From a virus (Duplodnaviria > Caudoviricetes), in the IMG/VR virus record IMGVR_UViG_2974670102_000001, positions 96,001 to 160,000 of that record: DNA of 64,000 bases; one strand, given 5' to 3'. This document shows, piece after piece, positions 19,526 through 55,118 of the stretch. Under the pieces are notes generated by a model. The model saw only the letters and a list, made by a program, of their open reading frames with translations. It was not told the origin of the DNA and ran no database searches. Made by a program: the position numbers and the translations under genes. How positions within the stretch are numbered: position 1 is the stretch's first letter; every line of letters begins with the position of its first letter.

Positions 19526-19602
19526 GGGCGGTTAGCTCAGGGGTTAGCAGCGTTCGGCTCATAACCGAGGGGTCGCGGGTTCGAATCCCGCACCGCCCAC
19601 CA
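19526..19602 (+). tRNA. tRNA-Met or Ile2 (CAT)
   Basis: GGGCGGT/ACCGCCC acceptor, loop CTCATAA, TTCGAAT, CCA. Confidence 0.9.
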
Positions 19603-19658
19603 CACAGAATAGGAGGCAATCATGAGTAGATTCTAGTGAACCAACTGGAGGTGTTCTC

Positions 19659-19946
19659 ATGAAAGCAAAAGCGTTTTACCATCGTGTTTGTAACTACGGC
19701 CCGGGCGGCTACCACTGCCCGTGCTGTGGTCCCGCACCGAGCATGCGTCGTAAGGAGCGTCAGCAACAACGACGCAAGTTCCATCGACTGCTTGACGTTC
19801 TGGACAAGTTTGACACCGAAGTCGAAATCGAATACGACAACCTCGTGCTCAACGATTTCGACGACGAGCGTCACGACTACTACAACGGCTGGGGCGGTGA
19901 TCCCAGCCTGCACGATGAGTGGAAGGATTGGAAGAAGGCAGCTTGA
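19659..19946 (+). CDS. Small protein with GPGGxxCPCC motif, basic then acidic
   Basis: 95 aa, GGAGG RBS. Confidence 0.7.
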   Translation: MKAKAFYHRVCNYGPGGYHCPCCGPAPSMRRKERQQQRRKFHRLLDVLDKFDTEVEIEYDNLVLNDFDDERHDYYNGWGGDPSLHDEWKDWKKAA

Positions 19947-20010
19947 CCGTACTGCACCGCAAAGCCTTAGATGCGGTGTGCCGCGAGAACGTGAGCGGTG
20001 CAGTGCACCT

Positions 20011-20096
20011 GCCCGGGTGGCGGAATTGCTAGACGCGACGGACTCAAAATCCGTTGGCCCTAGGCCGTGTGGGTTGGAGTCCCACCCCGGGCACCA
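20011..20096 (+). tRNA. tRNA-Leu (CAA)
   Basis: GCCCGGG acceptor, ACGGA-CTCAAAA-TCCGT, variable arm, CCA; atypical T-loop TTGGAGT. Confidence 0.85.
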
Positions 20097-20098
20097 TC

Positions 20099-20123
20099 GC
20101 GAGGGTGGCGAAATTGGTAGACG
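20099..20123 (+). pseudogene. 5' fragment of an interrupted tRNA-Leu-type gene
   Basis: GCGAGGG-TG-GCGAAATTGGTAGACG; acceptor strand pairs with 21300-21306. Confidence 0.8.
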
Positions 20124-20177
20124 TGGCGAAATTGGTAATCCCCAATTTTATTTCAGTAACCAACGTGGAGAAGATTC

Positions 20178-20888
20178 ATGCTAGAACTGAAAAACGACAT
20201 GCCGATTTTGGCCAAGAAGTTGTCCGGTGTGTATGGTCACGAGATTCGTATCATCGGGCCGTACGTGGACAAGAGAAACGGGCGTAAGCTCGTGGACATA
20301 AAGGGTGCGCCCCGTTCCTCGGGAATTAACAAAACCGTGCAGCTTGCACGTGCGCGCCTAGAAGTAAAGCTTGGTCGACGCCTTGTCGATGACGAGACTG
20401 TCGACCACAAGAACAACGATTGCACGGATGACCGTCCGAGCAATCTTCAGTTGCTGACGCACGCAGAGAACTCGGCAAAGCAGACGAAGGAAACGCGTAG
20501 TCGCTCGGCTGAAGCGTCTCGCACCGCCGAGGCGCGTTCCGCTAACAGCAAACGCAATACAGGTGAGAAGAATCAAGCTGCCGTCCTTACCGATACTGAA
20601 GTGAAAAGGTTTCGCACACTTTTCAGTAAGGGTAAAATGACGGTCAAGCAAATCGAAGATGCGTCGGAGTTGACAAATCGTTCGGTTCGTAATATGCTTG
20701 ACGGCCTGTCGTACAAAACGGCAGGCGGACCGCTCCGCATAGCAGGCTCTGTTGGTCGCGCATCCTCGTTGTCAGAGAAGCACAGGCAGTACATAGCGAA
20801 TCACGCAGAACTGTCAGCCGCGCAGATTGCAGAAGAACTTGACGTGAGTAGGTATGCAGTGATACGATACCGACGCACGCTTAACTAA
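20178..20888 (+). CDS. HNH homing endonuclease with C-terminal HTH-like region
   Basis: LGRRL...ETVDHKNNDCTDDRPSNLQLLTHAEN. Confidence 0.85.
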   Translation: MLELKNDMPILAKKLSGVYGHEIRIIGPYVDKRNGRKLVDIKGAPRSSGINKTVQLARARLEVKLGRRLVDDETVDHKNNDCTDDRPSNLQLLTHAENSAKQTKETRSRSAEASRTAEARSANSKRNTGEKNQAAVLTDTEVKRFRTLFSKGKMTVKQIEDASELTNRSVRNMLDGLSYKTAGGPLRIAGSVGRASSLSEKHRQYIANHAELSAAQIAEELDVSRYAVIRYRRTLN

Positions 20889-20889
20889 C

Positions 20890-20976
20890 GGGAGTGTGCT
20901 GGAATTGGTAGACGGAACGGATTTAGATTCCGTAGGCCGCAAGGTCGTGTGGGTTCGAATCCCATCACTCCCACCA
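20890..20976 (+). tRNA. tRNA-Leu (TAG)
   Basis: GGGAGTG/CACTCCC, ACGGA-TTTAGAT-TCCGT, variable arm, CCA. Confidence 0.9.
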
Positions 20977-21006
20977 CTACACGAAATTTTAGTTAAAGGT
21001 ATTTAA

Positions 21007-21246
21007 GTGCCGCCAAGCATCGAACAGGTAAAACTTATACTCAGATCAGCAGCATTGTCTCCGAGCAGCAGTCAGTTGTCTATTTCTGGCTTTGACGATA
21101 TCATGAAGGCAGCAGAGGAAGCCTATTGTGGAGATAGCCGAGCCATGCTCACAAACGTCCGGGAAATTGCCTTGCAGTTTCCGGACAATACGATGATGAT
21201 GACGATTTTGGCGCTGTATTCTGAATCCATGCTGAGTATGCATTAA
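21007..21246 (+). CDS. Hypothetical protein within the HNH cassette
   Basis: 79 aa, visibly lower GC, AAAGGT RBS. Confidence 0.55.
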   Translation: MPPSIEQVKLILRSAALSPSSSQLSISGFDDIMKAAEEAYCGDSRAMLTNVREIALQFPDNTMMMTILALYSESMLSMH

Positions 21247-21260
21247 GCGCAATCCCCACA

Positions 21261-21310
21261 GTCCTGCCGGTCGAAAGGCCGTGAGGGTTCGAATCCCTTT
21301 CCTCGCACCA
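21261..21310 (+). pseudogene. 3' fragment of the interrupted tRNA-Leu-type gene
   Basis: Variable arm GGTC-GAAA-GGCC, GAGGG-TTCGAAT-CCCTT, TCCTCGC-ACCA. Confidence 0.8.
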
Positions 21311-21404
21311 CTTTGGATTGTAGGCGTAAATCGAGCGGGACTTCCCCACCCACTCGATTAGGTATGGTACACCTTATAGACCGTCGCCTACAATCCAAAG
21401 TGGT
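21307..21404 (+). ncRNA. Putative structured RNA closed by a perfect 20-bp stem
   Basis: ACCACTTTGGATTGTAGGCG / CGCCTACAATCCAAAGTGGT with internal hairpins. Confidence 0.5.
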
Positions 21405-21477
21405 TGTGGTAAAGATGTAGTGTGCTTTGCCTTTGAAGCGCGGGCGCTGTGGTTCTCAGGCCACGACAGCGCCCAAC

Positions 21478-21553
21478 GCCGGTTTAGCTCAGTTGGTAGA
21501 GCAGCGCCCTTGTAAAGCGCAGGTCACGGGTTCGAGCCCTGTAACCGGCACCA
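21478..21553 (+). tRNA. tRNA-Thr (TGT)
   Basis: GCCGGTT/AACCGGC, loop CTTGTAA, CCA. Confidence 0.9.
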
Positions 21554-21577
21554 CTAAACAATAACAACGAGGTTGTG

Positions 21578-21916
21578 ATGAATACGCATGAGGCTTACGA
21601 GATCGTCGATAGACTGACGCCGGTATCGGTCAGGAACCTCGAAGACGCGTACGTACGGTTCATGGAAATGGCGCTTCTGGTCGATCCACACCCGGAGACT
21701 GAAGACCGGGCCACACGGGATCGTGAGACATACACTGAATTCCTGCTACCGCCCGACGAGAACGGCAATCCCGTGATTTCGGTCCCGGGCATGCACCAGT
21801 TTCTGTCCAAGATCACGGGCCATCCACTACAAACCTGCGTAGCCTTCGACTATGTTGACTTCCATCGCGTGCACGGCACGACGGTAGAGGACGCGGAACT
21901 CGCTGGCTACGTTTAA
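21578..21916 (+). CDS. Hypothetical protein
   Basis: GAGG RBS. Confidence 0.7.
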   Translation: MNTHEAYEIVDRLTPVSVRNLEDAYVRFMEMALLVDPHPETEDRATRDRETYTEFLLPPDENGNPVISVPGMHQFLSKITGHPLQTCVAFDYVDFHRVHGTTVEDAELAGYV

Positions 21917-21925
21917 GGACGGACC

Positions 21926-22138
21926 ATGGAAGAAGACGCATACAGGTTCAGTGTGGCAGCGCTCAAAAGCGAGTACGACGCTGAACTGCTCGAACTGCGC
22001 AAGACAGTGCTTGAAGGTCGCGGTGACGTTGCTGGGTTTATCAAACTCAAGGAGTCGCTTGACTCAAGGCTGAAGGACCGCGTTAGCGCGGTTACTGGCG
22101 CACGCAGTCAAACACAGAACAAGTTGCTGTACAACTGA
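21926..22138 (+). CDS. Hypothetical protein
   Basis: 70 aa, AAGGA RBS. Confidence 0.65.
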   Translation: MEEDAYRFSVAALKSEYDAELLELRKTVLEGRGDVAGFIKLKESLDSRLKDRVSAVTGARSQTQNKLLYN

Positions 22139-22144
22139 ACAAGA

Positions 22145-22221
22145 CTCCGCTTAGCTCAGCCCGGTAGAGTACGTGATTTGGGATCACGGGGTCGCAGGTT
22201 CAAATCCTGTAGCGGAGACCA
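22145..22221 (+). tRNA. tRNA-Pro (TGG)
   Basis: CTCCGCT/AGCGGAG, CGTGA-TTTGGGA-TCACG, CCA. Confidence 0.9.
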
Positions 22222-22239
22222 CACAACATAGGAGGTGTC

Positions 22240-22590
22240 TTGGAAACCACTTACGACTACAGCCTTACGTTCGACCTGACTGACATCATCGTGTTCGTTC
22301 TGATCGCGATCATGATCAAGATGGTCATCGACATCGTGCGTGAGCGCATGCGAATACGCAGGCTCCGACGCGACATGGGGGCAAACGGCAATCTTCCGTG
22401 CATCACGATCTCGGGTAACGACGATGTGTCGATCTCGGGTCTTGTGTACGAAGGGCGGCCCATCCCCTCGGTCGATATCAAGAACAAAGCGCTGTTCGTC
22501 GACGGTCAGTTCAAGCGCCGCCTCGCCCGCAACAGCCGTGTCTACAACCGTGGCATCGGAATCTTCGCGGACGGCAAGTACATGGGGTAA
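22240..22590 (+). CDS. Membrane-anchored hypothetical protein
   Basis: One TM segment (IIVFVLIAIMI), AGGAGG RBS. Confidence 0.7.
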   Translation: METTYDYSLTFDLTDIIVFVLIAIMIKMVIDIVRERMRIRRLRRDMGANGNLPCITISGNDDVSISGLVYEGRPIPSVDIKNKALFVDGQFKRRLARNSRVYNRGIGIFADGKYMG

Positions 22591-22594
22591 TACC

Positions 22595-23059
22595 ATGCGC
22601 AGTATCTTTCACATTTCGGTCGGCTCCGATAACTGGAACCCGACCGAGGACGAACTTGCGGGCATCGTCCGCAAGTTCAAAGAACTGGAAGCAAAGCAGG
22701 GTCAGCGTCAACAGCTTCCCGATACCCGCAAGATCATCCACATCAGTGTGGGTGCTGAGGATTGGACGCCTACCGCAGACGAACTGTTGGCCATCGTCAA
22801 TCAGTTCCAGTATGCAGACCTCGATCCGCTCGGTGGGTGGATTGCGACGCGTCACGGTATCAAAGTCACTGACATCGAGACCGCCGCACAGCCCACGCTG
22901 GTGGTGAACGGCACGACCCACGAAAGCGAGGCTCGTGCTTCGCTACGTCAGGACTCCATCGACCGGCTTGAGGCCATCCGCGAAAACCTGCGTACGTTCA
23001 AGCTGAGCACGCTCGATGTCGACACACTGATCAATCGGTTGTCGACGTATCAACTTTAA
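22595..23059 (+). CDS. Portal clip-segment paralog (tandem repeat), 154 aa
   Basis: HISVGAEDWTPTADELLAIVNQFQYADLDPLGGWIATRHGIKVTDI matches portal HLTAGDDKWTPTGEELNALVRTFQQAEYDPLGGWVSTRNAVQAVDI. Confidence 0.8.
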   Translation: MRSIFHISVGSDNWNPTEDELAGIVRKFKELEAKQGQRQQLPDTRKIIHISVGAEDWTPTADELLAIVNQFQYADLDPLGGWIATRHGIKVTDIETAAQPTLVVNGTTHESEARASLRQDSIDRLEAIRENLRTFKLSTLDVDTLINRLSTYQL

Positions 23060-23080
23060 CCGAAAAGCTTAGGACAACAA

Positions 23081-23512
23081 ATGAAACAACTCAACACGCA
23101 ACGCCGCTTCGAATGCCTGACACCGGAAGGTACATGGGTCTCCGTGCACTGGGAGCAACTGGAACCGGGCGACATGATCCGCCTCCTGCCCGCTGTCGGC
23201 ATCACCGAGGACGTTCCGCCGACCGACGTATTCGTCGTCATGGACACGCCTACCGTGAACGTGCGTTCGGTGAACGAAATCCGTGCCGAACAAGCAGCCG
23301 CAGCGCAGCGTGAAGCGCTGGCCAACACGGAAGGTGTCGATGCTATCCAAGCAGCGCAGCGCGATATCGACGCAGCCGTCGAGCAGATGAAGCCGGTAAC
23401 AGAGGCCGTGGCAAAGGTGGCGCACGCAGTAAAGGCCAAGAAGACGCCGAGCCCGAAGGTTCCGGCACCGGCACGCAAGCCGCGCACGCGCAAGGTCGCG
23501 ACGCCGAAGTAA
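23081..23512 (+). CDS. Hypothetical protein with basic C-terminal tail
   Basis: 143 aa, AGGA RBS. Confidence 0.7.
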   Translation: MKQLNTQRRFECLTPEGTWVSVHWEQLEPGDMIRLLPAVGITEDVPPTDVFVVMDTPTVNVRSVNEIRAEQAAAAQREALANTEGVDAIQAAQRDIDAAVEQMKPVTEAVAKVAHAVKAKKTPSPKVPAPARKPRTRKVATPK

Positions 23513-23521
23513 TGGCCGTGT

Positions 23522-23529
23522 AGTAAATA
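23522..23529 (+). promoter_or_regulatory. AGTAAATA motif
   Basis: Intergenic, upstream of tRNA-Tyr. Confidence 0.65.
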
Positions 23530-23624
23530 GGTTGGGTGAGCGCGGAAACGCAATCCCCAATTTGAGTTGTACAGAAAACTAGTGCTGGTTGCCGGATGCA
23601 GTTGTTACCCGGAACAGCACACGC

Positions 23625-23714
23625 GGATGGGTGCCCGAGTGGCTAAAGGGGGCAGACTGTAAATCTGCCGGGCCTCAGTGTCCTACGTTGGTTCGAATCC
23701 AACCTCATCCACCA
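23625..23714 (+). tRNA. tRNA-Tyr (GTA)
   Basis: GCAGA-CTGTAAA-TCTGC, long variable arm, CCA. Confidence 0.9.
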
Positions 23715-23767
23715 GAACATAAGCAGGAGCCCTGAGCATCAGGGCATCAGGGCAACAAGGAAAAGCA

Positions 23768-24049
23768 ATGCCGATTAAGCCGCTGTATGACAAGGTGGTG
23801 GTGCGTACCACCGACACAGACCGTACGACTGTAGGGGGCATCGTGATCCCCGCTGCTTCGCTCAAGGCGAATCAGGCTGTCGTGGTCGCTGTCGGTGACG
23901 GCCACCTTATGCAAGACGGTACGCTTCGACCGCTGTCCGTGAAGGCAGGCGACGTTGTGTACCTCTCGCATGAAGGCTCCGAGATCGAAGTCAACGGTGA
24001 AAAGCTTCGCGTCTTCATCGAAGGCGATCTGATAGGAGTCCTCAACTAA
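23768..24049 (+). CDS. groES: Co-chaperonin GroES
   Basis: IKPLYDKVVV...TVGGIVIP...VVAVGDG...VKAGDVV. Confidence 0.92.
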   Translation: MPIKPLYDKVVVRTTDTDRTTVGGIVIPAASLKANQAVVVAVGDGHLMQDGTLRPLSVKAGDVVYLSHEGSEIEVNGEKLRVFIEGDLIGVLN

Positions 24050-24058
24050 GCAGTACAT

Positions 24059-24135
24059 TCCCCGTGAGCAAGCTAGGCGACTGCACCGGACTGTTAATCC
24101 GGCATTGCGTGGTTCGAATCCACGACGGGGAGCCA
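24059..24135 (+). tRNA. tRNA-Asn (GTT)
   Basis: TCCCCGT/ACGGGGA, CCGGA-CTGTTAA-TCCGG, GCCA. Confidence 0.88.
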
Positions 24136-24139
24136 ATCA

Positions 24140-24242
24140 TGAATAGGTCATGAGTAAGGCAGATCACTCAATCCGGAAACTCAAAAGGTAATCCGGGTAG
24201 CAATGAGCATCCTGTAAGCCGAGACGATGATTGACTTATTCA
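24140..24242 (+). ncRNA. Putative structured spacer RNA
   Basis: 11-bp closing stem TGAATAGGTCA/TGACTTATTCA; fills the Asn-Phe spacer. Confidence 0.4.
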
Positions 24243-24244
24243 GA

Positions 24245-24320
24245 GCGCGGGTAGCTCAGTTGGTAGAGCACCGGACTGAAAATCCGGGTGTCGCTGGTTC
24301 GAGTCCAGCCCTGCGCACCA
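24245..24320 (+). tRNA. tRNA-Phe (GAA)
   Basis: CCGGA-CTGAAAA-TCCGG, canonical D and T arms, CCA. Confidence 0.92.
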
Positions 24321-24326
24321 GCGTTG

Positions 24327-24436
24327 TGATCGAGTGAAAATCGTAGGAAGGGGCCGATTACCCTGACCGCAATCTGTAGGTGGACCGGCTGGCCCTCATC
24401 CTGCTAGTGTAGATTTTTCCCATGTGGTTTCGATCA
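24327..24436 (+). ncRNA. Putative rod-like structured RNA
   Basis: Nested stems TGATCGA/TCGATCA, GAAAATC/GATTTTT, GTAGGA/TCCTGC, GGGCC/GGCCC. Confidence 0.4.
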
Positions 24437-24539
24437 ACTAATCATTGTGTGGTTGTAGCGCACTAAATCAGACGGCCGGGCTCCGGAGCCCGCGTACCAT
24501 ACCACCCCGGATGGAAACCGTTGAATATTCCGGGTCGAT

Positions 24540-24616
24540 AGGGGTGTAGCCAAGTTGGTTAAGGCAACGGATTTTGATTCCGTCATGCGTAGGTTCGAAT
24601 CCTACCGCCCCTTCCA
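24540..24616 (+). tRNA. tRNA-Gln (TTG)
   Basis: AGGGGTG/CGCCCCT, ACGGA-TTTTGAT-TCCGT, CCA. Confidence 0.9.
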
Positions 24617-44720: not shown

Positions 44721-46256
44721 ATGGCACGCCAAAAGGGCACCGATTTCGACAACATCAACACCAACGGCAACAAACGTGACAAAGTGAAGGTCACGGACGT
44801 GGTGACCCTGTTCAAGTTCCCGGAAAAGAAGTGGGTGACTCTGCGCCTGTACGGTGACATCCACTCGTACGCAACCGCGTGGGTGAAGACGAAGACGAAG
44901 GACGGCAAGTCCACGAAGTTCCCGATCGATCTTCCGTCGTACGACCCGACGACCCAGACGTTCGACAGCACGAAGTACGACCCGTGGTACGAGTTCTCGC
45001 AACAAGAGCGCGACAACAACGTCGAGCGTGACGACCAGATGATTCAGGTCGGCCGCAAGTTCTACATGAACGCGCTGCTGCGTCACCTCCAGAAGCAACA
45101 ACCGAGCACGAAGATTCGTCCGACGAGCACCGAGAAGGAAACGGGCTTCAAGGACAAGGACAGCGACACGTGGACGCCGTGGCAAGTTCTGGCGCTGAGC
45201 CCGGGCCTGATCGGCAAGATTCGCGAACTGAAGGGTCTCAACACCGTGACCTCGAAGAAGACGGGTGCCACGAAGACGTACAACGTGTCGGACGAGAAGT
45301 TCGGTCGCGACATCCGTATCCTGTACGATTCGACGAAATCGCCGGGTGACCAGTACCAAGTGGTGCCGGGTGATTCGCGCACTCCGATGACGGAAGAAGA
45401 ACTCTCGTTCCTGCGCTGGGACACGTCGGCTCTCGCATCGGAACCGCCGAGCGACGAGGAAACGAAGAAGGAATTCGAGTCGTGGGCCAAGCGCAACGGC
45501 ATCAAGCTGAAGTCGGGCAAGCGCCGTGACGAAGAGGACATCGACGAGGACGAAGACGAGTCCCCGAAGAAGGGCAAGTCGAAGAAGACGACGACCTCGA
45601 AGAAGAAGCAAGTCGAAGAAGACGACGAGGACGATGAAGACCTCGACGGTGACGACGATGGCCTCGACGAGGACGAAGACGACGAACCGGCTCCGAAGAA
45701 GGGCAAGAAGGCCCCGGCCAAGGGCAAGAAGGTCGTCGAAGAAGACGACGATGACGACCTCGACGAAGACGAAGACGAAGACGAAGACGAGGATGACGAA
45801 CCGGCCCCGAAGAAGGGCAAGAAGGCGGCTCCTGCCAAGGGCAAGAAGAAGCAGGTCGACGAAGACGACGAGGACGAAGACGACGAAGACCTCGATGACG
45901 ACGAAGACGACGAACCTGCACCCAAGAAAGGCAAGGCAGTGAAGGGCAAGAAGAAGCCGGTCGAAGAAGACGACGAAGACGAGGACGATGACGACCTCGA
46001 CGAAGACGAGGACGAAGACGACGAGCCCGCGCCGAAGAAGAGCAAGAAGGCTGCACCGAAGGGCAAGAAGAAGCCTGTCGAGGACGACGAAGACGAGGAT
46101 GAAGACGAAGACCTCGACGACGATGAAGACGACGAGGACGAAGAACCGGCCCCGAAGAAGAGCAAGAAGCCTGCTGCGAAGAAGGTGGCAAAGAAGACCA
46201 GCAAGAAGAAGCCGGTCGAAGAAGACGAGGACGACGAAGACGACCTCGACGACTAA
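44721..46256 (+). CDS. gp32-like ssDNA-binding protein with a long acidic/basic repeat tail
   Basis: KFYMNAL...FGRDIRI core; acidic C-terminus; adjacent to recA. Confidence 0.7.
   Translation: MARQKGTDFDNINTNGNKRDKVKVTDVVTLFKFPEKKWVTLRLYGDIHSYATAWVKTKTKDGKSTKFPIDLPSYDPTTQTFDSTKYDPWYEFSQQERDNNVERDDQMIQVGRKFYMNALLRHLQKQQPSTKIRPTSTEKETGFKDKDSDTWTPWQVLALSPGLIGKIRELKGLNTVTSKKTGATKTYNVSDEKFGRDIRILYDSTKSPGDQYQVVPGDSRTPMTEEELSFLRWDTSALASEPPSDEETKKEFESWAKRNGIKLKSGKRRDEEDIDEDEDESPKKGKSKKTTTSKKKQVEEDDEDDEDLDGDDDGLDEDEDDEPAPKKGKKAPAKGKKVVEEDDDDDLDEDEDEDEDEDDEPAPKKGKKAAPAKGKKKQVDEDDEDEDDEDLDDDEDDEPAPKKGKAVKGKKKPVEEDDEDEDDDDLDEDEDEDDEPAPKKSKKAAPKGKKKPVEDDEDEDEDEDLDDDEDDEDEEPAPKKSKKPAAKKVAKKTSKKKPVEEDEDDEDDLDD
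45530..46253 (+). repeat. Coding tandem repeats (D/E run + PAPKKGKK unit, about 6 copies)
   Basis: GACGAA/GAAGAC-rich blocks alternating with AAGAAGGGCAAG. Confidence 0.85.
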
Positions 46257-47847: not shown

Positions 47848-48545
47848 TGGGATACAATCCGCTCGTGCTCTCCACACGTGAAGAGCAAGAACAGGCGGAT
47901 GACTTCCTGATGTCCCTGACGCAATTGGCACGGACTACTACCAATCCGCAAGGTAGTTCTCCTATGCAAGAGATTGAGCGGAGACTAGCCGAGGCGCAGG
48001 CCCCGGAACAAAACGCGAGCGCTCCGGCCCCCCAGCGGGTACGACGTTCGCGTTTTTTCTATTCTCCGACCAAGAGCTTCAAGGAGGCCGTAGACGATGC
48101 TAAGGGGATTTCTGAACCGAAGTCATTGCCTGTTGAAAATGGTGAGATAAACGACCGGGCCGAGGCGTACGCGCGTGAACTCCCTGTCGCGCTCTCGGAC
48201 AAGATCGCGGTTATACGCGAGTACCTGTTGAACGAGTGGGCACCGTCTGCGTTTGCGACGAGCGCGGCCACCGCACAGTTCATGGATGTTGCGCAACGTA
48301 CACTTGGGACTGCCATCGACACGCAGCCCATGATGAAGCTGCAACTCATGGTCGACAAGGCACTCACCGTCAAGATGGCTGAGTTCGTAGCCCAGTTCAT
48401 GAATCTGGACCCTTCGCAGGCACCGGCACTAGCAGATCACGTGGCCCCCAAGAAGGAGGCCATCATCATCCATCCACATGACGACGAGCGCCGTCAGCGG
48501 CAGCGTCCAGCACCACGCAGAGAACGAGAAGATGAAGAAGATTGA
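47847..48545 (+). CDS. Hypothetical protein upstream of terminase
   Basis: 232 aa, TAATG coupling. Confidence 0.7.
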   Translation: MGYNPLVLSTREEQEQADDFLMSLTQLARTTTNPQGSSPMQEIERRLAEAQAPEQNASAPAPQRVRRSRFFYSPTKSFKEAVDDAKGISEPKSLPVENGEINDRAEAYARELPVALSDKIAVIREYLLNEWAPSAFATSAATAQFMDVAQRTLGTAIDTQPMMKLQLMVDKALTVKMAEFVAQFMNLDPSQAPALADHVAPKKEAIIIHPHDDERRQRQRPAPRREREDEED

Positions 48546-50736
48546 CTATTCGAAGGTGACCGGCGTAGCTGATCATCTTGCGGAACTTGCCGAGTCGGGT
48601 GATTACAATCTGTTTCCCGGCCTCCTTTCGGACTCCGAAATGGAAGAGATTCAGCGTCGACGCGTGAAGGCAAAGCCGAAGGGCAAAGTCGCCACCGTGC
48701 GCGAAGACGAGTACATCATCAAGGGTGGCGGTGTCAGCGACGATGGTGAGGTCGTCGACGACTTTGACATCGCACGCTACATGGCAGAGGCCGAGGACAA
48801 GGAAACGGGCGTCCTGCACGATCTGAAGATCGATACGCGCGACATGCGCGCTGCCAAGAACTTCTACGACTACGCATTCAACATGCAGTCGGCAAAGGCA
48901 AACCCTCCGTGGTCGCGCCAGATGTGGGTTGGCCTGATGCTATTCGGTGAGGTGTGTCCACGCTGTTCGGATCACGACTGGCTAGACATTCACAACGTTC
49001 CGGTCGACTTCAAGGCCAAGGACATGCCGGATCGCCTACAGTTGCTGGAGTTCGGAAAGTGCCCGCGTTGCGGCTCCGACAAGTGGGACCTGATTCAAAA
49101 CCACGGACTCCGAAACTACATGCAGTACGTGGGCGTGATCGGGCAGCGGGGCTCGAAGTCGTCGCTCACCGCACTCCTGTCCTCGTACTCGCTGCATCGG
49201 TTTGTCAAGTTCCCGAACTACGCATCGCTGTCGAAGTCGATGCAGGCGTCGACCGAGTTGACCGGCACGTTCGTATCGCTGACGTTTGCCAAGGCCGTTG
49301 GTGTTCTGTGGACTCCGTTCAAGAAGATCATCGAAGAGAGCGACTGGTGGAAGGGATTGTTCGATATCCTGAAGCATCACGGTAACCAGATGGGCACCGA
49401 GTTGTACACGATGTCGAGCCTGTACCTGACGCTAGGCTACAAGAACATACGATTCTACCCAAGCGGCCCGAAGTCGAGCACGCTGCGGGGGGACACGCGG
49501 ATTCTTGCGGCACTGGACGAATTGGGTCTGTTCCCGCTTCCGACAGGAGATAGTGAGGAAGACGAAACAAGTGAACGTGCAAACTCGGACGAGGCGCACA
49601 AGTCGCTGTACAACAGTCTCGGTACTGTTTCGGTCACCTACGAAAACCTGCTGAAGGAAGGCGTATCCAGCGCACCGCCACCTCTGCTCTTCAACGTGTC
49701 GTCGCCGTACTCGCAGCGCGACAAGATGATGCGGCTGCTTCGGGAGGCGCGGACGCCGGACGGTGAGAAGGTGATGCTTGGCGTCAACCTCGCGACGTGG
49801 GAAATGAACCCGTTCTACACGCGAAACTCCCAGATCATCGCACAGGCGTACGCAGCCAACCCCGAAAAGGCGGCTCGTGACTGGGGTGCAAGTCCTCCGG
49901 CCGTACACTCGCGATTCATCCATCCGGATACTGTGGGCGAAGGTGTGTTTGTTGGCGGTCCTAACGCTCACAACTTCATCTACCAATTCGACAAGCCGGG
50001 TGAGGTGTATGGGCGCATCGAGCGGGTACGCGGTAACCAGTGGCCGAGCATCATCGCTATCGACGCAGGTTCCTCGAACAACTCGTTCTGTATCGCGGCC
50101 GTGCACTACAACTTCGAGACCGGGAAGACGGTGGTCGGAACCGCACTCGAATGTATTCCGATGAACGGGAAGAAGGTAAACTTCAACCTGCTGTACCTGA
50201 ACGTGATCCTGAAACTGGCGCGCGAAACGAATGCGGTTGGCATGGTGGCCGACCAATGGCAGTCGATTGATCTGTTGCAGCGTATCCGCGAGGACATGGG
50301 CCTGAATCCGCTCGGGAAACCCCGGTGCTTGCCTCGTCAGTACTCGCCACGTCGTAAGGACTTCGATGCATGTCGCGCGATGCTCACGTCGAAGAACCTG
50401 ATTCTTCCGACAATCACCGAGTCTGATCGGGATCGGATTGTGGCGGGCGGTATCGACGATTACCGCTCTGAATTCATGAACCGTCCGGTTCCCCACATTC
50501 TGCACCAGATGATCACGGTGCGCGATGTGGGCCCCGAAAAGTGCCCGGAAAAGGGCGAAGGCTACACCGACGACATGTTCCGGGCCATCGTTTTGGGCTC
50601 TACCATCGTCCACCATCCGAGAGTGATGGAGCGTCTGGCAGAAGCGCGGAACTTCAACTACGGCGGCGACAACGGAAACCGTATGCCGGAACCCGGATTT
50701 GCTGGTCGCTCGGGTGGCTTCGGGGCACGTCGATAA
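48532..50736 (+). CDS. Terminase large subunit
   Basis: GQRGSKS, LRG, AALDE, VSSP, IAIDAG, ADQWQS, DDMFRA; CPRC..CPRC insert. Confidence 0.85.
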   Translation: MKKIDYSKVTGVADHLAELAESGDYNLFPGLLSDSEMEEIQRRRVKAKPKGKVATVREDEYIIKGGGVSDDGEVVDDFDIARYMAEAEDKETGVLHDLKIDTRDMRAAKNFYDYAFNMQSAKANPPWSRQMWVGLMLFGEVCPRCSDHDWLDIHNVPVDFKAKDMPDRLQLLEFGKCPRCGSDKWDLIQNHGLRNYMQYVGVIGQRGSKSSLTALLSSYSLHRFVKFPNYASLSKSMQASTELTGTFVSLTFAKAVGVLWTPFKKIIEESDWWKGLFDILKHHGNQMGTELYTMSSLYLTLGYKNIRFYPSGPKSSTLRGDTRILAALDELGLFPLPTGDSEEDETSERANSDEAHKSLYNSLGTVSVTYENLLKEGVSSAPPPLLFNVSSPYSQRDKMMRLLREARTPDGEKVMLGVNLATWEMNPFYTRNSQIIAQAYAANPEKAARDWGASPPAVHSRFIHPDTVGEGVFVGGPNAHNFIYQFDKPGEVYGRIERVRGNQWPSIIAIDAGSSNNSFCIAAVHYNFETGKTVVGTALECIPMNGKKVNFNLLYLNVILKLARETNAVGMVADQWQSIDLLQRIREDMGLNPLGKPRCLPRQYSPRRKDFDACRAMLTSKNLILPTITESDRDRIVAGGIDDYRSEFMNRPVPHILHQMITVRDVGPEKCPEKGEGYTDDMFRAIVLGSTIVHHPRVMERLAEARNFNYGGDNGNRMPEPGFAGRSGGFGARR

Positions 50737-53162: not shown

Positions 53163-55118
53163 ATGTACACGCGCAATCGCATTCTCGGGGTCCATGGTGG
53201 CTCCATCAACGTAGACCCGGTTGGTGACAGTAACGTGGTTGCTGCCCGGGCAGTGCGCGCGAACATGATGCCTGTGACCGCGAACATGGGTTACGGCGGT
53301 CTGGGCCTCGGCGGCGGTTCCGGTGCCTCCACAAACGTCAACAGTTTCTGGGCATCGAACTATCAGTACATGATGACGGGCATCCTGCCCGCAGACCCCG
53401 GTCTTACCGATACTGCCAACCTGAAGCTGTTCTATCGGGACATCTACCTGTTCGACAGCACGGCCGGTTCCGCAATCGACATTCAGTCGCACTTCCCATT
53501 CTCGGACTGGGAATTGCGTGGCCTCACGGAGAAGGAACTTGCTCCGTTCAACGAGACGCTGATGCGCCTCAACATCCGCCAGATGCTGCCGTTGATCAGC
53601 ACTGCTTATCTGGTAGACGGATTCTTCTGCGGGTCCATGGTGTTCGATCCGCGTTCGCGCCAGTTCATGGATACGCTAATCCACGACGCGCTTTCCTGCA
53701 ACGTGCTTCCGTCGTCGTTCTTCTGCATCGATCCCGAGATCAGTGTGACTACGAGTCAGGCAACGCAGCAGATGTTGCATTCTGCCTCAGAGTACACGCG
53801 TCGCTATCTCGATTCGATGCCGCAGTCGTTTGTGAACCAGCTTCGCGACGGCGCGTTCACGTTGGACCCAGTGACCATGCTGTATGTGGCGCGTCGCTCC
53901 ACCACGGACCGTGCGTCGACCTCGTACCTGCACCGTATTCTCCCGATGTACCTGATCGAGAAGACGCTGTTCCGGGGCACGCTCACCGAGGCGCAACGAC
54001 GCCAGCGTGCAATGACCCACCTGACGGCCGGCGACGACAAGTGGACGCCGACTGGCGAAGAACTGAACGCGCTGGTCCGCACGTTCCAGCAGGCCGAATA
54101 CGATCCGCTCGGCGGCTGGGTGTCGACTCGTAACGCGGTTCAGGCGGTCGACATTCGACCCGGTGGTGACTTCTGGCGCTGGTACGATACGGCCGACGTT
54201 CTGGTGCCGTACAAGCTGCGTGCCATGGGCATCAGCGAGGCGTTCATGGAAGGCGACACTTCGTACGCGGCAGCAGAGTCTGCGTACTCGTCGTTCCTTG
54301 AGACCCAGAACTCGTACCGACAGTACCTGACGGACTCGATCTTCTACTCGAAGATTTTCCCGCTCGTCGCCGTCATCAACGACCTGTACAAGGACCCGAA
54401 GAAGCGTGCGCAGACCGGTCACGTCGTCGACTTCCTGTTCAACAAGGGCAACCGCCAGAACCTCAAGATGCCGCAGCTTCACTGGCACAAGAAGCTTGAG
54501 GTGAAGGGCGAAGAGAACATGATGGAAATGCTCGAACTCGCATCCGAGAAGGGCGTTCCAGTTCCGCTCAAGATGTGGATGGCAGCAGCCCAGATCGATC
54601 CGGAAGCGCTCGACCGCGACCTCAAGGAAGATCGTGCGTATCGCGCGATGCTCCAGAAGTACACGGGCAAGGACACCAGCTTCCAAGCCGAGACCGAGAA
54701 CATCAACAGCCCTTGGGTGGGCAAAGAGGGTGGATGGGGTCATGGTGGCCCGCGCAGTGATCGTGATGAAATGGAAGACCGTGGTATCGAGCGAGCCGAG
54801 GAACCCGAGTTGCGCGCCCTGTTCGAACGCACGGCCGCTGGTAACCGCACCAGCGAATCCTTCAACCTCAATAGCCGGGGCTACCGTCAGCCGCTGCTGG
54901 CACGTGAATTCGAAGGCGACTCGTGGACGTTGACGAAGACTGGCAAAATCAAGCACAACCCGAATCCGGTGAACGCTCGACGCCAGATGAACGACAACAT
55001 CTACAAGATCGCGAAGCGCGCGACACGCGATCCGAACTACCGTGCGGAGTTGAAGAAACGCAATATCGAAAAACGGGGAAGCGCGGTCCTGCGCCACAAC
55101 CCCGCACTCAAGGACTGA
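53163..55118 (+). CDS. Portal protein
   Basis: 651 aa, downstream of terminase; YRDIY..D, SYLHRIL, clip-like segment, MGISEAFMEGDTSYA typical of portals. Confidence 0.75.
   Translation: MYTRNRILGVHGGSINVDPVGDSNVVAARAVRANMMPVTANMGYGGLGLGGGSGASTNVNSFWASNYQYMMTGILPADPGLTDTANLKLFYRDIYLFDSTAGSAIDIQSHFPFSDWELRGLTEKELAPFNETLMRLNIRQMLPLISTAYLVDGFFCGSMVFDPRSRQFMDTLIHDALSCNVLPSSFFCIDPEISVTTSQATQQMLHSASEYTRRYLDSMPQSFVNQLRDGAFTLDPVTMLYVARRSTTDRASTSYLHRILPMYLIEKTLFRGTLTEAQRRQRAMTHLTAGDDKWTPTGEELNALVRTFQQAEYDPLGGWVSTRNAVQAVDIRPGGDFWRWYDTADVLVPYKLRAMGISEAFMEGDTSYAAAESAYSSFLETQNSYRQYLTDSIFYSKIFPLVAVINDLYKDPKKRAQTGHVVDFLFNKGNRQNLKMPQLHWHKKLEVKGEENMMEMLELASEKGVPVPLKMWMAAAQIDPEALDRDLKEDRAYRAMLQKYTGKDTSFQAETENINSPWVGKEGGWGHGGPRSDRDEMEDRGIERAEEPELRALFERTAAGNRTSESFNLNSRGYRQPLLAREFEGDSWTLTKTGKIKHNPNPVNARRQMNDNIYKIAKRATRDPNYRAELKKRNIEKRGSAVLRHNPALKD

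Follow-up and report, generated by a model that had tools for sequence, protein, structure and literature searches.

A stand-alone portal-clip protein encoded in the tRNA island of Burkholderia phage BcepSauron, a possible decoy for portal-sensing defence

The DNA analyzed here (the window, 64,000 nucleotides) corresponds to positions 96001-160000 of the complete 262,653-bp genome of Burkholderia phage BcepSauron. The features that concern us are listed in Table 1. The gene under study starts with an ATG located 4 bp past the stop codon of the gene upstream, and it is flanked by tRNA-Pro (22145-22221) and tRNA-Tyr (23625-23714). A sequence-only reading of the window had placed this gene inside a tRNA island, 31 kb away from the portal gene, and both points were borne out by the tRNA calls and the coordinates. 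A longer frame beginning at GTG 22340 was rejected, because part of it lies over the upstream gene in a different frame and because the protein of phage BcepSaruman shares the Met start of the shorter frame. The frame uses codons as the portal and terminase genes do and is normal in this respect (coding-frame codon score 0.216; portal, 0.243).

Table 1. Positions of the clip gene, its parts and the related head genes in the window
Feature	Position	Strand	Remarks
Stand-alone portal-clip protein	22595..23059	+	154 aa; 100% identical to A0A482MNB3 (BcepSauron)
Partial clip copy 1, residues 3-35	22601..22699	+	first strand, GxxxWxPT tip loop, helix; without the last two strands
Full clip copy 2, residues 45-97	22727..22885	+	strand, tip loop, helix, DPLGG turn, two strands
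C-terminal short beta-hairpin and two helices, genus-specific	22886..23056	+	E102-109, H112-134, H140-151
tRNA island	19526..24616	+	9 tRNA genes; contains the clip gene
Large terminase subunit, natural clip partner	48532..50736	+	phrog_17415, E 1.4e-216
Portal protein, phiRSL1/PaBG/Y3-type	53163..55118	+	651 aa; phrog_16240, E 8.6e-186
Portal clip domain, residues 285-331	54015..54155	+	between stem helices 255-280 and 340-354

The gene had also been described as lying behind a sigma70 promoter, which is only loosely true. Same-strand sigma70-like sites do exist upstream, the closest on the + strand being those at 21076 (9/12), 20839 (9/12), 20670 (10/12) and 19488 (10/12), but they are 1.5-3.1 kb and several genes away, and none was found on the + strand between 21200 and 22595, that is, within 1.4 kb of the gene. 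The site at 20670 falls inside an HNH-like endonuclease gene (20178-20888; recognized by eye from the motif DHKNNDCTDDRPSNL), which is located between two tRNA-Leu genes. Strong sites of this kind are densely clustered in two regions of the genome, 3-29 kb and 217-259 kb. On the minus strand at 3,600-29,400 of genome G000, in the terminal region outside the window, there are about 30 sigma70-like promoters that are nearly identical and have a common GG(T/G)TATTGTTGAC head.

At 21246-21402 the window also contains a tRNA-like 3' half with the T-loop GGTTCGAATC and an ACCA end near 21310, which was called by neither ARAGORN nor Rfam; directly 3' of it is a 91-nt hairpin of -39 kcal/mol (21312-21402). 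This stretch may be a tRNA in decay or else encode a small RNA. Just upstream of a RecA-like gene, 44721-46256 encodes a protein of 511 aa whose long tail is acidic, of low complexity and spaced with lysines.

The assignment of 53163-55118 as the portal gene held on examination. In addition to the profile match given in Table 1, the top Foldseek and VIA-align matches of its model were all portals (G20c, P23-45, JBD30 and lambda), the best VIA-align match having a Z of 18.4 and an rmsd of 6.5 over about 345-347 aligned residues, and the large terminase gene is located 2.4 kb upstream. The model has the wing-stem-clip-crown fold with the clip between two long stem helices. The portal segment that the stand-alone protein resembles is indeed this clip, a strand-helix-strand unit (E285-289, H298-312 and E326-330). 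The gp20 of phage T4 has the same stem-clip-stem layout, its clip comprising residues 279-358 (PMC4493910). Pfam has no family for the portal or for the stand-alone protein, and PDB sequence searches with the portal and with the fusion partners described below gave no matches. Portals of the phiRSL1/BcepSauron type are split or much longer in several cases (L082/L102, L090 and L107; open frames of 500-1150 aa), and the portals P0081 and P0122 have Pfam intein matches; thus, the portal gene appears to be a hot spot for inteins or introns.

Residues 49-94 of the stand-alone protein (from 22739) align without gaps to residues 286-331 of the portal (from 54018), and realignment gave the same 23 identities in 46 positions that had been counted before. 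BLASTP aligned the two proteins with 27/60 identical residues (E 4e-17), and the profile-profile probability was 98.9. The second, partial copy reported to start at 22610 (residue 6) was also recovered, with 14 of its 23 residues identical to the full copy and 11 to the portal. A degenerate pattern of the motif matched only the sites 22610, 22739 and 54018 in the window, and 0.00 sites in shuffles. In the AlphaFold2 model of the protein (mean pLDDT 87), copy 1 forms a strand and a helix (E4-8 and H18-35; pLDDT 91-96), and copy 2 a strand-helix-strand-strand unit (E46-52, H61-75, E81-85 and E89-95; module pLDDT 87-96). Residues 45-97 show the three strands and one helix of a clip, and they are homologous to the portal segment that joins the two stem helices. 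Copy 2 matches the profiles phrog_16240 (E 1.5e-14) and phrog_11049 (E 1.1e-7).

Stem, wing and crown are absent from 22595-23059: only profile positions 291-344 of 643 match, and the stem and wing sub-profiles gave no score. The free copy therefore has no DNA channel and no capsid anchor. The 'portal protein' label given by NCBI to the BcepSaruman counterpart, which is 93% identical to the BcepSauron protein, is wrong, and the free clip gene of phage HRDY3 is mislabelled in databases in the same way. A BFVD search with the protein returned the portal of PaBG as the second match (E 8.5e-3), and ESM Atlas gave no usable match. The wide structural search used the whole model, so that its C-terminal helices filled the matches; for the C-terminal hairpin and helices only generic helical hairpins were obtained (best Z 6.8). 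The match to AcrIF23 (Z 6.8) is of this kind and was rejected as uninformative.

The sequence-only reading had proposed looking for stand-alone clip genes in other jumbo phages, and such genes recur across related ones; a second, non-portal gene with a clip module is present in BCSR5, Motura (two copies), HRDY3 and Lu11. These proteins form a real, large and previously undescribed family, which is detectable by profiles only and was missed by single-protein searches. When 1.84 billion representatives were searched with a profile, 745 clusters matched at E<=0.001. Among 159 proteins examined, 90 possess a clip module without any other portal part, a ratio that is not representative because the profile was weighted to free copies. 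The module is single in 57 of the 90 and tandem in 33; their median length is 121 aa, the smallest has 49 aa, and many hardly exceed the clip itself. When 24 complete genomes of the phiRSL1/BcepSauron portal type were compared, free copies were clear in 9, doubtful in 2 and absent from 13. They are always at least 18 kb from the portal, seven adjoin tRNA genes, and several others sit among replication or nucleotide genes. The genes checked are whole genes within phage contigs, the gene order around them is conserved between relatives, and large carriers found independently of the portal also encode a portal of this type. A strict pattern scan of bacterial genomes found no true clip copy, which does not by itself prove absence from bacteria, and two genome-contig and two viral pattern matches were rejected as chance matches. 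Literature searches on portal decoys and truncated portal paralogs turned up no account of free clip proteins in nature, and Iyer et al. 2021 do not mention them.

By the measure of dN/dS, free clip genes are under purifying selection, the values being 0.13-0.24 in four usable comparisons, with the clip part alone included. The Lu11 pair gave 0.14 and the HRDY3 pair 0.23 (0.19 for the clip only); in the G006 pair dS was saturated and dN was 0.28. The BcepSauron frame compared with a sludge relative gave about 0.24 (p 0.012, on at least 15 differences, those listed), and this value, the intact frame and the normal codon usage together dispel the earlier concern that the gene might be pseudogene-like.

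The residues G10, W14, P16 and F28 of the module are kept in 98-100% of 103 free modules, T17, E20, L21, A31, T42 and R43 in 81-89%, and the N-terminal tip half (first strand, tip loop and helix) is retained in 21 of 23 partial copies, all of these figures being inflated because the members were picked by the same profile. In contrast, the portal-invariant residues Q29, E32, L36, W39 and N44 are lost from the free modules, as are the residues entering the second stem helix. On these alignments, the strand-loop-helix tip is the best-kept part of the free clips. By its topology, it would correspond to the part of the T4 clip that contacts the terminase, i.e., peptide 288-311.

The protein had been regarded as built from copies of the phage's own portal clip. 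The homology to a clip was confirmed, but the BcepSauron copy does not resemble its own portal more than it does others: its identity with the clip of that portal is 44-50%, which places this portal 117th among 214. Most other cognate pairs are equally unremarkable, the exceptions being HRDY3 (rank 1) and the second copy of Motura (rank 6). We therefore suspect that the copies are old or fast-evolving. In a 179-row tree, 98 of 100 free copies were set apart from the portals (SH-aLRT 93) with 3 label changes, and an AU test on a 39-row subset rejected neither sisterhood with the own portal (p 0.68) nor a single clade of free copies (p 0.55); these trees rest on 50 columns, too few to fix the number of origins or their direction. 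Because the clip is present at its place in every portal, we infer that the portal is the source. The clip gene is accessory and dispensable yet under selection, and it belongs to a family that presumably goes back to the clip of phiRSL1/BcepSauron-type portals.

The clip is fused to PF13876 in G019/G029 and to PF21825 in a single member. PF13876 is the sponge Acb4 and PF21825 the sponge Sequestin, which was itself discovered through fusion to sponges (bioRxiv 2025.07.12.664507). Further partners are GroES, DUF1653-like, HTH and WYL-like domains; the fusions differ in partner and position, with at least eight kinds in all. Known anti-defence domains occur in just 2 of about 90 members and the other partners are diverse, so the fusion is perhaps a mere neighbourhood effect. 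PHROG 11049, the type of Pseudomonas phage Lu11 gp133, has the same free clip module as its C-terminal half, the clip origin of which is unannotated, joined to an unrelated, phrog_872-like N-terminal domain. This N-terminal domain of gp133 matches one half of phrog_9467, and the Acb4-like domain matches the other half. The phrog_872-like domain, which is clip-fused in Lu11 and HRDY3, stands alone in PaBG and many small phages (L031:2501-3091 for Lu11 gp133; L032 for the PaBG gp252 region), and it is, from such sequence matches, itself a candidate anti-defence domain.

Portals are among the commonest triggers of bacterial immunity (Avs4, Avs11, SpbK and Swarozyc). The known binders of the clip are the terminase, the neck adaptor, neighbouring portal subunits and host sensors, and some bacterial sensors that dock on the clip are switched on by clustering on the 12-fold portal ring. 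SpbK docks on the clip of YonE and is activated by clustering (PMC12847820, PMC11984713), and Swarozyc binds stem and clip. Avs4 requires stem and wing as well (PMC12847820).

We give nearly even chances to the explanation that the clip protein is a soluble, stem-less clip mimic that keeps a portal sensor occupied but unclustered and so serves in counter-defence. The free clip would bind the sensing domain of a clip-docking host sensor; without stem, wing and crown it would be unable to form a ring, so that the sensor would not be clustered, and the sensor would be titrated before or during the synthesis of the real portals. The tandem copy might supply the neighbouring strand that normally comes from the adjacent portal subunit, or it might add avidity. 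What leads us to this explanation is a patchy, diverging, selected gene that keeps the tip without the ring-building domains, together with the sponge fusions. Furthermore, a partner that recognizes the general shape of a clip, and not one terminase, would be in keeping with the divergence from the cognate portal. The sequence-only reading had named a portal-sensing defence of the Avs type; by analogy with the known sensors, a clip-only protein would fit clip-docking sensors of the SpbK/Swarozyc type better, and we replace Avs with these. A somewhat bolder proposal, which we hold a little more tentatively, is that free clips in general are non-activating decoys of the portal surface read by sensors, forming a trigger-derived class of counter-defence, and that the domain is mobile across the jumbo-phage lineage and fused into multi-domain anti-defence proteins. 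The decoy explanation is weakened by the rarity of known anti-defence domains among the members, by those members located among replication or nucleotide genes, by the lack of an early promoter nearby and by the additional needs of Avs4, and a free clip might activate a sensor instead of blocking it. A role in binding RelA/SpoT was rejected, because the T7 portal binds RelA/SpoT without need for the clip.

The large terminase of the phage is another candidate partner. The free clip may bind the large terminase or the head-tail adaptor, either its own or those of co-infecting relatives, and delay or block packaging. The T4 proteins gp17 and gp13 both dock at the clip, and packaging is inhibited by peptide 288-311, which binds gp17 (PMC4493910). 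This peptide likewise is an isolated clip tip acting in trans, but it is a synthetic reagent, whereas the free clips are a natural, selected gene family. Every checked carrier of sufficient size also encodes the phiRSL1/BcepSauron portal type, and bacterial genomes yielded no true copy in the pattern scan, as would suit such a partner. However, a regulator of the phage's own motor would be expected to occur almost universally and to follow the cognate portal, and the gene is missing from over half of the complete genomes and is no closer to its own portal; the loss of the five portal-invariant residues also speaks against it. We consider this explanation unlikely.

Rather less probable still is that the strand-swapping clip sheet has been exapted as a generic tag for oligomerisation or docking, unrelated to the partners of the portal. 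The diversity of the fusions and the hydrophobic core among the conserved residues are in its favour, as is the T4 clip sheet, which is made of strands from two adjacent subunits (PMC4493910), but 38 of the 90 members have 110 aa or less, many being barely more than a clip with nothing to assemble, and the family is confined to phages of the phiRSL1/BcepSauron portal type. Just as improbable, in our estimate, is a helper of assembly that caps the clip strands of portal monomers or fresh rings, and thereby controls ring size, prevents premature neck binding or shields the real clip from sensors. GroES is the fusion partner of one member, the groES gene is located 1-2 kb away in BcepSauron and Motura, and the homology makes an exchange of strands with the portal plausible. 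T4-type portals assemble at the membrane, and the twin-arginine-like leaders of several members could target it. Yet the gene is never in the head operon, most relatives are without it, and co-variation with the cognate portal was not detected. Finally, that the genes are non-functional debris of partial portal duplications, as their short, variable and patchy occurrence and the repeated origins compatible with the trees might suggest, is very improbable and largely refuted by the dN/dS values, the intact frames and normal codon usage, the boundaries that end exactly at the clip in 90 proteins and the synteny between relatives.

Returning to the decoy explanation, the free clip can be compared with known systems. 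It shares with the clip of tailed-phage portals (phrog_16240 type; T4 gp20) a homologous strand-loop-helix-strand-strand unit with the same predicted secondary structure, but it is a separate accessory gene with 1.6 copies, and its tip is acidic (mean net charge -3 to -4) where that of T4 is basic. Ocr mimics DNA, and Gp145 of ICP1 mimics a host antitoxin; competitive mimicry of this sort is the likely logic of the free clip too. To our knowledge, no known anti-defence protein of the mimic type arose by duplication of part of a structural protein of the phage itself. With Nip of phage Phi3T, which acts against SpbK, the free clip would have a common end, namely that portals are made without triggering abortive infection; Nip binds the NADase domain of SpbK and is unrelated to the portal (PMC11984713), whereas the free clip is proposed to be a copy of the trigger itself.

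The clip has little freedom to mutate, because the terminase and the neck dock there. If the decoy explanation is true, the free clip bypasses this constraint on mutating the sensed surface, and similar decoy fragments of other sensed phage parts are to be expected. BcepSauron, Motura, BCSR5 and Lu11 are cultured, so that the idea is directly testable, and the free clip protein is a ready bait for new portal sensors or for mapping the portal-terminase interface.

Several further members deserve mention. Twin-arginine-like leaders start seven free clip proteins (P0135, P0136, P0170, P0216, P0217, P0230 and P0271); judged from their sequences, these leaders would be odd for a cytoplasmic decoy and could serve membrane tethering or export. 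A 104-kb fragment of genome G038 carries two different free clip genes (L234:1280-1846 and L235:805-1731). In a 455-aa frame of phiRSL1 (L233:307-1674, - strand), a stretch with weak resemblance to a clip (local match of 14 bits, E 1.4e-4) may be a highly diverged clip copy. In genome G030, a protein encoded at L119:2387-3013 (- strand) consists of a phrog_1485 domain, the helix/turn half of a clip and then a portal-crown-like motif (VPL.MW..AAG), and it is possibly a different portal-fragment fusion.
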